Below are positions 51,025 through 52,806 of a stretch of 64,000 bases of DNA, piece after piece. The stretch is from NCBI RefSeq assembly GCF_024502345.1, contig NZ_JALDNN010000001.1; one strand, given 5' to 3'. How positions within the stretch are numbered: the first letter of the stretch is position 1; the number at the start of each line of letters is the position of its first letter. Below the pieces are notes generated by a model. That model saw only the letters and a list, made by a program, of their open reading frames with translations, did not search any database and was not told the DNA's origin. Source of the stretch: Escherichia coli (GTDB lineage: Bacteria; Pseudomonadota; Gammaproteobacteria; Enterobacterales; Enterobacteriaceae). A program made the translations under genes and the position numbers.

Positions 51025-52806
51025 TTATCTCCTGTAGTGAATCTCATCGTGTAGTCTGGGGGTAACAATTCGTAAATTATCAATATCGTATACGCTGCCG
51101 CCATATTCAATTGCAACACGATGATGTATCTGGAATTTTTTAACTATTTCTTTAGGGCCATAATGCCAACCGTCAATAGGTGCTTTTGCGGTTAATCCTT
51201 GTTTTATACGTGTTTGGTTACCACTTGAAAACTGCGCTATCAACTCCGGATCCTGACTCACCTCCAGCCACAGCGCCTCGCGAAACTCATCAAAGGTTTT
51301 AAACTCCCGTCCGCGCAATTTATCAGCAATATGCGCCGGGATTGGCGCGCCGTTGCCGTTATTGGATACCGACATATCCAGCCAGCGAGTTCCTGATGAA
51401 AGCGGGACGCCGCGCCCTGTTACAACACCAGGCAGCTTTCGCGGATCCTCCTTCAGGTAAACATAGATGGGCTTAATACCGGATCCCGCCGGAAAAACCA
51501 GAATATAATCGTTGAATTCTTTCGGATCAGGAACCGGGAATGGCGGCGTGGTATAGGTATCTGTACCGTCCGGAATCGGCGTCACCAGAATGGTGGGCTG
51601 ATCCAGCGGCGGCCTGTCGTTACCGGTATGGCCCGGAACATTCCCATGTTCCGGATTTTCCGGCGTCCAGGTAATCAGGGGGCCATCGACATCGTGAGCG
51701 GGGGTAAATTCATAACGCTGCGTCTGCTCGTTCCACTGCATGTTCGCCACGCGGACTTTTTCATACGGCGTACCTTCACCCGTATGAACACCATACACCT
51801 GAGGCTTGCCGTGAATATCAGTTCCCCAGAAAAAACGTACCCGGGTGGTGGCGGTACTGCCTGCTAGTGCTTTCTGCCGCAGTTCTTCCTCATACCAGAA
51901 CTCATCACGTCCGGGCACGCGAGCACTGCCCTCGCCCGCAGAGGGAATATACAAAGCAGATGCCAACGCACCGATGTAAGAGCCTCGGGTTGCACTGAGT
52001 ATGCCACTGAGCGACCATTTTCCCCATATTTGAGCCGCCAACACACTACCCGGAAACAGTAGCATGGTTTGAGCTTCTGCGGGTTGCCCGACATCGTTAG
52101 CCTCGGGATGGTGGTATCCACAGCAGTCATCAACCACTGGCTGAGCAAAAATCGCTACTTGACCGAAGTTTTCAGCGGGTTCTTCTGCCGTTCCAGCATC
52201 TGTACATCCCTTCTCCTTCAGACAGGATTTGGCATAGACCGGGTTAACCGCTGGTGAAGAGAGTGGAAGGTTAACAACTGGTAGAGGTTCAGGCTTAAGA
52301 TTACTGGCAGGTGGGCTTTTAGGCGGAATAAATAAGCTATTATAGCCAGCAGGAAAGGTCAACCAGTCAAATTCCGTATTGGCTATTAGATGTTTACATA
52401 ATATGTAGTGATAATCGACAGTTACACATTCGGTAGGAAGATTATTGTCAGAAATGTTTACATGAATAGCAGTTAATGAAGCATTTCTTAGCTGAATATA
52501 ATAATACCGTTCCCAGCGCCCGCTTTTATTTATACGATACAAATCGATTTCAATAAATAACCGCTCATTCTGATTGATGGCATTAGACAGTAGCGGTGAG
52601 CTTTTATCAATGAGTTTGCAAAATTGTAGCCCCTGTAGATTAACGCCATTACCAGTACTGGTAATGGCGTTGGTGAGTGCAAAGGCAAAAATTTCATCTT
52701 CATGGCCAACCTGCCAGCGATTACCAACCGACGCATACGTCCCACAGCCTGAAGAAATATCGCCCTGCTTCTCACCGATTATTCTCAGGTAAACAATATC
52801 GCTCAC
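51025..52806 (-). CDS. Hcp (T6SS TssD) fused to C-terminal colicin-E9-type HNH DNase domain (Hcp-extended toxin)
   Basis: N-terminal ~150 aa match Hcp (MSDIVYLRIIGEKQGDISSGCG.., GHEDEI, KLIDKSSPLL, LRNASLTAIHV); C-terminal ~135 aa align with the colicin E9 DNase domain (VTGRGVPL..WLD..GAPIPAHIADKLRGREFKTFDEFREALWLEVSQDPEL..HHRVAIEYGGSVYDIDNLRIVTPRLHDEIHYRR); Pro-rich linker between. Confidence 0.85.
   Translation of the reverse strand: MSDIVYLRIIGEKQGDISSGCGTYASVGNRWQVGHEDEIFAFALTNAITSTGNGVNLQGLQFCKLIDKSSPLLSNAINQNERLFIEIDLYRINKSGRWERYYYIQLRNASLTAIHVNISDNNLPTECVTVDYHYILCKHLIANTEFDWLTFPAGYNSLFIPPKSPPASNLKPEPLPVVNLPLSSPAVNPVYAKSCLKEKGCTDAGTAEEPAENFGQVAIFAQPVVDDCCGYHHPEANDVGQPAEAQTMLLFPGSVLAAQIWGKWSLSGILSATRGSYIGALASALYIPSAGEGSARVPGRDEFWYEEELRQKALAGSTATTRVRFFWGTDIHGKPQVYGVHTGEGTPYEKVRVANMQWNEQTQRYEFTPAHDVDGPLITWTPENPEHGNVPGHTGNDRPPLDQPTILVTPIPDGTDTYTTPPFPVPDPKEFNDYILVFPAGSGIKPIYVYLKEDPRKLPGVVTGRGVPLSSGTRWLDMSVSNNGNGAPIPAHIADKLRGREFKTFDEFREALWLEVSQDPELIAQFSSGNQTRIKQGLTAKAPIDGWHYGPKEIVKKFQIHHRVAIEYGGSVYDIDNLRIVTPRLHDEIHYRR

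Follow-up and report, generated by a model that had tools for sequence, protein, structure and literature searches.

A predicted Hcp-type T6SS effector gene, usp, and its downstream DNase tip and immunity modules in Escherichia coli

Identity and distribution of the gene

The DNA analysed here (hereafter the window) is a 64,000-nucleotide stretch of an Escherichia coli contig. An open reading frame that starts with GTG and runs along the minus strand at 51025..52806 encodes a 593-aa product. An earlier interpretation made from the letters alone (the sequence-only reading) had described a product of this length without naming the strand; the plus-strand translation of 51025-52806 has many stops. 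WP_256632838.1 is an exact protein match, and its 90% cluster has 2,755 members. UTI89_C0121 (UTI89_RS00600) is identical at 575 of 593 residues (97%), with no gaps or premature stops, leaving 18 differences. Because of this identity and the same insertion site between aroP and pdhR, we assign the ORF to usp, the "uropathogenic-specific protein" gene of PAIusp, also published as Hcp-ET3-4 and annotated in RefSeq as tssD. The locus is called Usp or PAIusp in some papers (PMC7142922, PMC3685522, PMC4436062) and Hcp-ET3-4 in others (PMC6730261, PMC6099711).

The locus is present in about 1,050 of 5,426 complete E. coli genomes, where it is annotated as tssD plus bacteriocin immunity proteins, and 946 of the 5,426 keep 80% or more of the 5.2 kb used as the usp-array query. 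Carriers include non-uropathogenic strains (e.g., from sprouts, pigs, frogs and poultry). The large ORFs scanned in the window include no T6SS structural gene, and a preprint survey of E. coli T6SS does not specifically treat usp.

An older annotation gives Usp as a 346-aa protein starting at M248. This is the sole in-frame ATG and it lacks a Shine-Dalgarno-like sequence. We set this start aside because the Hcp-encoding 5' part of the gene is intact and conserved.

The island and its promoter region

The PAIusp island occupies 48376..53213 (minus strand; 4,838 bp) in the aroP-pdhR intergenic region, as delimited by aligning its flanks to K-12. Identity to the K-12 intergenic sequence is 100% as far as 48375, and the K-12 sequence continues from about 53214. 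In most strains the island is about 4.1-4.2 kb. With 36% GC, the module array, like the leader at 31%, is poorer in GC than pdhR and aroP (53-56%). The insertion site is the same in UTI89 and FDAARGOS_943, and PAIusp is reported always to lie between aroP and pdhR (PMC7142922).

The AT-rich usp leader and the regulatory region shared by aroP and usp extend over 52807..53383 (minus strand). The divergent aroP promoter P3 drives usp, and is activated by TyrR and repressed by H-NS (PMC7142922). A scan for TyrR boxes (TGTAAAN6TTTACA, up to 2 mismatches) gave one chance-level match, outside the promoter. As the TyrR boxes diverge from consensus, the promoter was placed via alignment to K-12. The putative P3 -10 element (TGGTAT, minus strand) is at 53240-53245 and is conserved in K-12 and UTI89.

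Hcp domain and tether

The N-terminal domain (aa 1-146; 52369..52806, minus strand) was identified as an Hcp/TssD tube protein by NCBIfam, Pfam and PDB searches. The score for NCBIfam TIGR03344 (TssD) is 124.7 bits, where the curated cutoff is 58.9, and aa 1-146 align to model positions 1-160 of 167. The matches to Pfam T6SS_HCP (1.5e-12) and to the PDB Hcp 6a2v (2.4e-15) are also far beyond chance, and the motif GHEDEI is present at aa 34-39, in line with the Hcp/TssD-like N-terminus that the sequence-only reading had described. By profile match, this is a bona fide Hcp/TssD domain of the kind that defines specialised Hcp effectors. AF2 pLDDT is low over the domain because just 3 alignment rows cover it.

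A Pro/Ala/Ser-rich tether follows (aa 147-183; 52258..52368, minus strand). It is predicted to be disordered (AF2 pLDDT below 50 for aa 133-175) and matches nothing in Pfam or the PDB. The extension beyond the Hcp domain is approximately 450 aa long, and six copies of it exceed the space in the lumen of an Hcp ring.

Pre-IMT region, Pyocin_S domain and HNH DNase

The Pyocin_S or inner-membrane translocation (IMT) domain (aa 309-450; 51457..51882, minus strand) matches Pfam PF06958 at 1e-40 over the full model (1-139 of 139), and the PDB entries for 3mfb (7.7e-18) and klebicin G (3e-39). It is full length and lies directly upstream of the nuclease toxin. For pyocin G, a role of the IMT domain in cytoplasmic import has been shown, with FtsH and TonB1 required, and the same study lists Usp as an IMT-containing T6SS effector (PMC9040868). 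The need for IMT, FtsH and TonB in cytoplasmic entry has been shown for pyocin G only (PMC9040868, PMC9602870).

The C-terminal domain (aa 460-591; 51034..51429, minus strand) is a colicin/pyocin HNH DNase. Pfam Col-Pyo_DNase (PF21431, His-Me finger) matches at 5.9e-42 over the entire model (1-124 of 124), the DNases of colicin E9, colicin E7 and pyocins in the PDB give matches of about 1e-30, and identity to the E9 DNase is 59 of 138 positions (43%). The AF2 model of the domain superposes on the E9, E7 and AP41 DNases (Foldseek) with target TM-scores of at least 0.9 and an rmsd of 1.6-2.0 A. The complete colicin-E9-type HNH DNase domain proposed by the sequence-only reading is therefore borne out by profile and by fold. 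The strings that it quoted are present (GAPIPAHIADKLRGREFKTFDEFREALWLEVSQDPEL at aa 486-521 and IHHRVAIEYGGSVYDIDNLRIVTPRLHDEIH at aa 560-590), and all catalytic His and Asn residues are kept: H561, H562, N577, H586 and H590 align with E9 H102, H103, N118, H127 and H131. E9 E100 is replaced by Q559. Published mutants (H314A/H315A, N330A and H339A, in 346-aa numbering; PMC3685522) affect H314, H315, N330 and H339, and adding 247 to this numbering lands on the HNH residues of the Usp of the window. A Usp construct from strain Z42 has non-specific DNase activity in vitro that is blocked by the immunity protein (PMC3685522).

Between tether and IMT domain is a region without annotation (aa 184-308; 51883..52257, minus strand). 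It carries a conserved motif, V-[FY]-A-K-S-C-x4-G-C-T-D-A-G-x3-E-P-x2-N-F-G, at aa 190-215; the stretch after it is rich in Gly and Ala and moderately hydrophobic. Pfam gave no match here, and neither Pfam nor NCBIfam has a family dedicated to the element; a PDB search with aa 147-316 gave no match at E up to 10, and no counterpart was found in any PDB bacteriocin chain. The segment at aa 181-220 is nevertheless predicted to be structured (AF2 pLDDT 80-93). We considered a prePAAR-like membrane anchor in the aa 147-316 stretch and rejected it, because no segment is of transmembrane grade (hydropathy maximum 1.11) and the PDB search was negative.

A word-indexed search for homologues of this linker gave mostly fragments, and an exhaustive search of representatives was more informative. 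We identified 61 homologues with the pre-IMT region and IMT domain. Pyocin_S is present in 61 of 61, every recognised toxin domain is a nuclease, and the motif columns are kept in about 75%. Where a carrier is recognised, it is PAAR (24) or Hcp (3). In addition, identity to a VgrG-type DUF2345 protein is 78% over aa 184-233, and the NCBIfam model for the VPA1263 effector aligns to aa 199-590. The payload cassette appears to begin near aa 184, with a starting motif common to PAAR- and VgrG-type effectors. Tentatively, and as a somewhat unlikely reading, the payload that moves between Hcp, PAAR, VgrG and MIX carriers may start with a T6SS-specific module about 125 residues before the IMT domain, acting in carrier loading or in engagement of the target envelope before import, or this start may be a recombination junction like that of CdiA VENN.

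The sequence-only reading had taken the protein as two domains. The Hcp domain and the DNase stand, and the profile and PDB searches give significant matches for both (with the low AF2 confidence for Hcp given above); what that reading overlooked was the Pyocin_S/IMT domain, together with the 160 aa that separate IMT from Hcp. Its remark that extended Hcp proteins are a known route for toxin loading is correct.

Immunity genes and orphan tips

Directly downstream of usp is imu1 (orfU1; 50738..51022, minus strand), which encodes the cognate colicin-type DNase immunity protein (94 aa). Its product matches the pyocin AP41, Im7 and Im9 immunity proteins in the PDB (2.5e-20 to 1e-16), and UTI89 is among the other strains that have the same protein (WP_000471928.1). 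OrfU1 has been shown to bind Usp and to inhibit it (PMC3685522). The colicin-class immunity partner that the sequence-only reading had recognised is thus real, while three further modules, each a DNase tip plus an immunity gene, went unmentioned there.

Orphan tip 1 (50331..50579, minus strand) repeats, in inactivated form, the 3' end of usp from codon W513 onwards, and begins at the same TGGCTGGAGGTGAGTCAG junction as in usp. In this tip H561 has become D, and a 1-nt deletion puts the HNH motif out of frame. It is followed by imu2 (orfU2) copy A (50040..50330, minus strand; 96 aa). Copy A shares 65% identity with imu1, the C-terminal third being invariant, and its exact protein occurs on about 990 contigs. 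Tip 2 (49633..49881, minus strand) duplicates tip 1 with the same lesions and precedes imu2 copy B (49342..49632, minus strand), with a protein identical to that of copy A. These two modules are 97-100% identical. The extra tandem module (698 bp), of which imu2 copy B is a part, is one more than is found in the genomes compared; a query spanning its junction found no one-piece junction among the matches listed, the top ones being two-piece composites. Tip 3 (48939..49184, minus strand) is inactivated by H561 to Y and a TTA to TAA stop inside DIDN-L. The last gene, imu3 (orfU3; 48650..48933, minus strand), was defined by DNA alignment to FDAARGOS_943 and UTI89. It is frameshifted by a 7-bp deletion, leaving a 78-aa residual ORF (48650-48886) that lacks the first 18 residues. 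Imu3 has been reported to bind DNA and not Usp (PMC3917654).

All three downstream tips start at the W513 junction and are each followed by an immunity gene, and in all three the first HNH histidine is substituted and a frameshift or stop codon is present. The window has four immunity ORFs (imu1, imu2 twice and the frameshifted imu3). Module anchors are 93-100% identical, and the cores diverge to 37-77%. This layout is typical of sequential effector displacement, for which the T6SS arrays of V. cholerae provide a precedent (PMC5361080).

We searched for an intact "uspII" (usp with the orphan-1 tip beside orfU2) with a chimeric query and found no active alternative-tip allele in the 5,426 complete genomes. 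The sole contiguous match of at least 95% is in strain NR1441, where a natural recombinant of usp and tip 1 is a frameshifted pseudogene and an immunity gene remains.

Comparison with known systems

The closest relative is the Usp of PAIusp as described for UTI89 (UTI89_C0121), Z42 and TA211. The protein has the same length, GTG start and 97% identity, the insertion site and P3 -10 element are shared, Imu1 is identical, and the tip and immunity modules are in the same order. Unlike this reference, the window has the extra tandem tip and imu2 module, the 7-bp deletion in imu3 and a 53-bp extra segment in the leader. Published usp subtypes have two or three orfU genes (PMC3685522), compared with the four immunity ORFs here.

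Like members of the Hcp-ET family (Ma et al., 2017, as summarised in PMC6730261), Usp has an N-terminal Hcp, a C-terminal toxin, adjacent immunity genes and an orphan site away from a T6SS cluster. The authors of that work counted "Pyocin S3" (Pyocin_S) as a second toxin domain. Pyocin_S was later shown to be an inner-membrane translocation domain and not a toxin (PMC9040868), which fits our data because every homologue has Pyocin_S upstream of a separate nuclease domain.

Colicins E9, E7 and E2, pyocins S2 and AP41, and klebicin G share with Usp an IMT domain followed by an HNH DNase with the same fold and catalytic residues (40-46% identical). Imu1 belongs to the same four-helix family as the Im-type immunity proteins of nuclease bacteriocins, with the helix III region conserved. 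Unlike these bacteriocins, Usp has no domain for receptor binding or outer-membrane translocation and no lysis gene, is chromosomal rather than plasmid-borne, and is carried by Hcp. Judged by its domains, Usp would act like a nuclease bacteriocin after entry, but it is not a member of the nuclease bacteriocins proper.

VPA1263 of Vibrio parahaemolyticus (MIX-LysM-Pyocin_S-HNH) has the same payload cassette as Usp (aa 199-590 aligned), and PAAR-, Hcp- and VgrG-linked Pyocin_S-nuclease effectors have the pre-IMT motif and IMT domain in common with it. The carrier differs: Hcp in Usp, and MIX, PAAR or VgrG in VPA1263 and in the PAAR and VgrG effectors. Secretion of VPA1263 needs the N-terminal MIX region and not the PyS-HNH part (PMC9602870).

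The module array resembles the orphan CT/immunity modules of Rhs, CdiA and MafB and the arrays of V. cholerae, which also have carrier-less 3' toxin fragments, each with an immunity gene and a conserved recombination junction (PMC4436062, PMC5361080). The usp tips differ from the fragments of these loci in that all belong to one toxin family (DNA identity 74-89%), span only about 80 codons and are inactivated. They are not a reservoir of alternative toxins, and the only natural recombinant found is a dead usp.

Delivery and function

We conclude, with a probability of roughly 0.8, that usp encodes the Hcp-type T6SS effector Hcp-ET3-4 of PAIusp, delivered in the tube, imported by its IMT domain, active as a DNase, neutralised by Imu1 and followed by relic modules. 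The Hcp/TssD domain would join the inner tube of a T6SS encoded elsewhere and be fired into a neighbouring cell, as its domain identity and the published Hcp-ET work suggest. The disordered Pro-rich tether would link it to the payload cassette (aa ~184-593). By analogy with pyocin G, Pyocin_S/IMT may then move the toxin out of the periplasm and through the inner membrane. The HNH DNase would then degrade the target chromosome non-specifically, as the Z42 construct does DNA in vitro, while Imu1/OrfU1 would protect the producer by tight binding to the DNase (PMC3685522). The downstream modules are probably relics of older toxin-immunity pairs displaced by recombination at the W513 junction, their immunity genes kept probably against relatives still firing the older variants. 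As published, usp would be transcribed from P3, the divergent promoter of aroP, which TyrR and H-NS control (PMC7142922).

The T6SS dependence of Usp itself is weakly documented. A 2015 paper noted that evidence for Usp secretion was lacking (PMC4436062). According to later reviews, Ma et al. (2017) reported T6SS-dependent delivery for Hcp-ET1 and Hcp-ET2 (PMC6730261), and antibacterial and immunity effects for Hcp-ET3-4 (PMC6730261, PMC6099711). ST131 is usp-positive (PMC9686529) and has lost essential T6SS genes (PMC10711316). At least one major lineage has therefore kept usp although it has no working T6SS.

Published work on Usp stresses genotoxicity to mammalian cells. The protein could be mainly a host genotoxin and virulence factor of extraintestinal E. 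coli, with T6SS competition secondary or absent and the immunity genes serving only against self-intoxication, but we consider this unlikely. Purified Usp, or E. coli with the locus, kills human cell lines with activation of caspase 3/7 (Nipic et al., 2013, as cited in PMC4436062, PMC3917654 and PMC7142922). usp is tied epidemiologically to isolates from pyelonephritis, prostatitis and bacteraemia (PMC3917654), Sharp et al. excluded it from the bacteriocins on these grounds (PMC5536347), and its retention in ST131 after loss of T6SS genes (PMC9686529, PMC10711316) also fits. However, all modules of the protein are antibacterial in type, the IMT domain being otherwise tied to crossing of the bacterial inner membrane (PMC9040868), and the immunity genes are colicin-class. 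Displaced tips with retained immunity genes fit only selection of bacterium against bacterium. The antibacterial activity reported by Ma et al. (2017; summarised in PMC6730261) and the presence of the locus in non-uropathogenic strains argue in the same direction. Host-genotoxic and antibacterial roles of Usp are not mutually exclusive.

A second alternative concerns the strain of the window, in which the locus could be a largely decaying relic kept for its immunity genes, with usp silenced by H-NS or undeliverable and the island protecting against the Usp of competitors. The three dead tips and the frameshifted imu3 are consistent with decay, as is the fate of NR1441, where recombination with a dead tip destroyed usp and left an immunity gene, and H-NS repression (PMC7142922) and T6SS loss in a usp-positive lineage (PMC10711316) also agree with it. 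Yet the 593 codons of usp are intact, with all three domains and all catalytic residues, only 18 residues differ from UTI89 in a gapless alignment free of premature stops, the promoter -10 element is conserved, and 946 genomes keep most of the array region. We regard this reading as improbable.

It is highly improbable that Usp is a diffusible bacteriocin-like toxin freed without a T6SS (e.g., by lysis), its Hcp-like domain having another role such as receptor binding. In favour of this, the IMT and DNase half has homologues in colicins, pyocins and klebicin G, early literature termed Usp a bacteriocin (PMC3685522, citing Parret and De Mot, 2002) and no T6SS genes are nearby. Against it, the N-terminus satisfies the curated TssD model over its full length, domains for receptor binding or Tol/TonB-box translocation are absent, the PDB gives no bacteriocin match ahead of aa 307, the island has no lysis gene, and the same cassette is found on PAAR and VgrG carriers, which are T6SS parts.

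Significance

The delivered DNase effector that we favour is not a new locus. The gene, known since 2000, serves as a routine PCR marker for extraintestinal pathogenic E. coli. Its Hcp, Pyocin_S and colicin-DNase architecture, DNase activity, HNH dependence, OrfU1 immunity, promoter and antibacterial activity are already in print. The checks that the sequence-only reading proposed are likewise published: toxicity with and without the immunity protein, a DNase assay and HNH His/Asn mutants (PMC3685522), and antibacterial competition (Ma et al., 2017, according to PMC6730261 and PMC6099711). Our analysis supports the view that this reading was correct but incomplete, and that it did not recognise the locus as usp or Hcp-ET3-4.

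Usp would be a convenient E. coli model for the possible IMT/FtsH import of nucleases delivered by the T6SS. In the module array, effector displacement can be seen cleanly and on a small scale, with immunity genes and dead toxin stubs left behind.

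Domain organization of Usp

We identified an open reading frame of 593 codons with a GTG start on the minus strand at 51025-52806; the plus-strand translation there contains many stops. This gene is usp (annotated as tssD in RefSeq), and its product has three recognised domains. The N-terminus is an Hcp domain (T6SS_HCP at aa 28-139, 1.5e-12; the NCBI curated TssD model TIGR03344 at aa 1-146, 124.7 bits vs. a cutoff of 58.9), which matches Hcp proteins in the PDB at 2e-15 and weaker. The middle is Pyocin_S (PF06958, aa 309-450, full model, 1e-40; PDB 3mfb, 8e-18), and the C-terminus is Col-Pyo_DNase (PF21431, aa 460-591, full model, 5.9e-42). 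PDB matches of the C-terminus are the DNases of colicins E9, E7 and E2 and pyocins S2, AP41 and S8 (~1e-27 to 1e-31), and klebicin G was matched at 3e-39.

The DNase is identical to that of colicin E9 at 59 of 138 positions (43%). The alignment places the E9 HNH residues H102, H103, N118, H127 and H131 on H561, H562, N577, H586 and H590 of Usp. Glu100 of E9, just before the HH of the motif, is replaced by Gln (Q559, 51130-51132), but Usp is an active DNase nonetheless (PMC3685522). An AlphaFold2 model, built from an alignment of 61 homologues, is confident for the Pyocin_S and DNase domains, and the predicted DNase superposes on those of E9, E7 and AP41 (target TM-score at least 0.9, rmsd 1.6-2.0 Å). 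Directly downstream, also on the minus strand, imu1 (orfU1; 50738-51022) encodes a 94-aa colicin/pyocin DNase immunity protein (AP41 immunity, 2.5e-20; Im7, 1e-18; Im9, 1e-16). The sequence-only reading had proposed Hcp fused to a colicin-E9-type DNase, with a colicin-class immunity partner. Both domains and the partner stand, and every peptide string that it quoted occurs in the product, but the third domain, Pyocin_S, was missed.

A known locus and its genomic setting

Although the sequence was read correctly, the gene is a rediscovery of one known for 25 years, and its architecture, biochemistry and regulation are already in print. The locus appears in the literature under two names, PAIusp and Hcp-ET3-4, the latter being locus tag UTI89_C0121 in Ma et al. 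(2017), as relayed by PMC6730261 and PMC6099711. At the same site, UTI89 carries a 593-aa tssD gene (UTI89_RS00600, formerly UTI89_C0121) identical to ours at 575 of 593 residues without gaps. The locus, annotated in RefSeq as tssD plus bacteriocin immunity proteins, is present in 1,050-1,058 of 5,426 complete E. coli genomes. The exact product is WP_256632838.1, whose 90%-identity cluster has 2,755 members.

The window is core E. coli chromosome, in the order fhuA, mrcB, hrpB, fimbrial usher, gcd, cueO, acnB, aceEF, pdhR, island, aroP, ampE, ampD, nadC, hofB, hofC. Alignment to the empty K-12 site sets the limits of the low-GC insert between pdhR and aroP at 48376-53213 (array 36% and leader 31% GC; flanking genes 53-56%). 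Genes for a GPH-family sugar:cation symporter and a GH43 glycoside hydrolase between aroP and ampE (54916-57272) form a second small accessory insert adjoining the usp island; they are present in FDAARGOS_943, another usp-carrying strain, and absent at that position in K-12 and UTI89. Long plus-strand open reading frames antisense to aceE (44747-47020, 757 aa), aceF (43642-44334, 230 aa) and acnB (36254-38740, 828 aa) are presumably shadow frames of highly expressed, codon-biased genes rather than real genes.

Usp cannot be maintained in E. coli without immunity, is tightly bound and inhibited by OrfU1, degrades DNA non-specifically when free, and loses activity in H314A/H315A, N330A and H339A mutants (PMC3685522). 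In the 593-aa numbering used here (+247 relative to the 346-aa form of that paper), these residues are exactly H561/H562, N577 and H586. Hcp-ET3-4 is described as antibacterial and as neutralised by the downstream immunity genes (Ma et al., 2017, as cited in PMC6730261). The tests proposed in the sequence-only reading are thus already published. Transcription of usp is driven by the divergent P3 promoter of aroP, which TyrR activates and H-NS represses (PMC7142922); the -10 element of P3 is kept at 53240-53245. The 5' leader contains a 53-bp segment (~53059-53111) that is shared with FDAARGOS_943 and lacking in UTI89; the remaining regulatory region is ~93% identical.

The downstream module array

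Three further modules of ~698 bp follow imu1. In each, a tip comes first, duplicating the 3' end of usp from exactly the W513 codon (TGGCTGGAGGTGAGTCAG) onward, and an immunity gene follows. The equivalent part of colicin DNases contains the exosite that binds the immunity protein, together with the HNH motif. All three tips are dead: tips 1 and 2 (50331-50579 and 49633-49881) have Asp in place of H561 and have lost 1 nt, which shifts the reading frame of the HNH motif, and tip 3 (48939-49184) has Tyr in place of H561 and a stop codon, TAA for TTA. RefSeq labels them 'hypothetical protein' or 'pyocin-S2/colicin E7-DNase domain-containing protein'.

Between modules, the first ~90 nt are 93-100% identical, and the rest of the tip with the N-terminal two-thirds of the immunity gene only 37-77%; in the immunity C-terminus and spacer, identity between modules M0 and M1 returns to 100%. 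Conserved anchors thus flank a variable toxin-immunity core, as in polymorphic-toxin orphan modules (PMC4436062) and the sequential-displacement arrays of the V. cholerae T6SS (PMC5361080). In strain NR1441 (NZ_AP040215.1, 2465-4540), usp is joined to tip 1, imu1 is deleted, one immunity gene is left and usp is annotated as frameshifted. The repeats therefore do recombine in nature, and can kill the toxin gene. A search of 5,426 complete E. coli genomes found no intact usp with an alternative tip; thus, we infer that the tips are relics rather than a reservoir.

The window differs from the common form in an extra module, a deletion in imu3 and, relative to UTI89, the 53-bp leader segment. The extra tandem tip+imu2 module (49185-49881 vs. 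49882-50579, 97-100% identical) brings the immunity open reading frames to four, against the two or three of published PAIusp subtypes. Among the matches listed, no complete E. coli genome contains an uninterrupted imu2-tip-imu2 junction, and the extra module may be an assembly artefact. In imu3 (48650-48933), a 7-bp slippage deletion in TAAAATA-TAAAATA at 48923/48924 causes a frameshift that leaves only 78 aa.

A conserved element before the translocation domain

Pyocin_S was counted as a second toxin by Ma et al. Later work shows that the domain serves inner-membrane translocation (IMT): pyocin G requires it, along with FtsH and TonB1, to enter the cytoplasm (PMC9040868). Usp is named there as an IMT-carrying T6SS effector, and in such effectors the domain would have this role by analogy with pyocin G (see also PMC9602870).

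The 160 residues between Hcp and the IMT domain matched nothing in Pfam or the PDB, and none of their segments reached transmembrane-grade hydrophobicity. Residues ~133-175 are Pro-rich and predicted to be disordered, which would suit a tether. The sequence is conserved from about aa 184 onward across carriers, which suggests that a mobile payload cassette begins near there. We refer to aa 184-308 (51883-52257) as the pre-IMT element. The NCBIfam model of Vibrio effector VPA1263 aligns from aa 199, and aa 184-233 share 78% identity with a VgrG-type DUF2345 protein of E. coli. When 1.84 billion representative proteins were searched exhaustively, 222 relatives were found; in many of them the match covers the whole pre-IMT element and IMT domain and begins 95-170 residues after the N-terminus of the relative. 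The motif V-[FY]-A-K-S-C-x4-G-C-T-D-A-G-x3-E-P-x2-N-F-G (aa 190-215 of Usp) is kept in about three-quarters of 61 aligned relatives, and the element is predicted to be structured, with an AlphaFold2 pLDDT of 80-93 for aa 181-220.

Pyocin_S occurs in all 61 relatives, PAAR in 24 and Hcp in 3. The toxin domains recognised are nucleases without exception (23 DNases, six E3-type rRNases, and GH-E, Ntox17, RNase A, colicin D and EndoU types). The element is thus common to Pyocin_S nuclease effectors with PAAR, Hcp, VgrG or MIX carriers, and the pairing of IMT domains with cytoplasm-acting nucleases holds. Neither Pfam nor NCBIfam has a family dedicated to the element, and no PDB relative of it was found, full-length colicin E9 and klebicin G chains included.

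Proposed function

In the best-supported reading, a T6SS encoded elsewhere would take up Usp by its Hcp domain and fire it, the IMT-containing cassette would carry the DNase through the prey inner membrane, and the DNase would destroy the prey chromosome. Imu1 would shield the producer, and imu2 and imu3 would be older immunity genes kept after their toxins were displaced. To our knowledge, there is no room inside an Hcp ring for six copies of a 450-residue extension. A 2015 review noted no evidence of Usp secretion (PMC4436062), and Imu3 is reported to bind DNA and not Usp (PMC3917654). The ST131 lineage carries usp (PMC9686529), although essential T6SS genes have been lost from it (PMC10711316); thus, usp can be maintained intact in the absence of a functional T6SS. 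The main rival, in which Usp acts chiefly on host cells as a genotoxin, is backed by experiments (Nipic et al., 2013, as cited in PMC4436062 and PMC3917654) but leaves the IMT domain and the displaced-tip array unexplained. A genotoxin role is compatible with the antibacterial one.

Three details were absent from the papers we read: the interpretation of the dead orphan tips as relics of displacement, this strain's additional module and frameshifted imu3, and the conserved pre-IMT motif that different T6SS carriers have in common. Among these, the pre-IMT motif alone could lead to something new.
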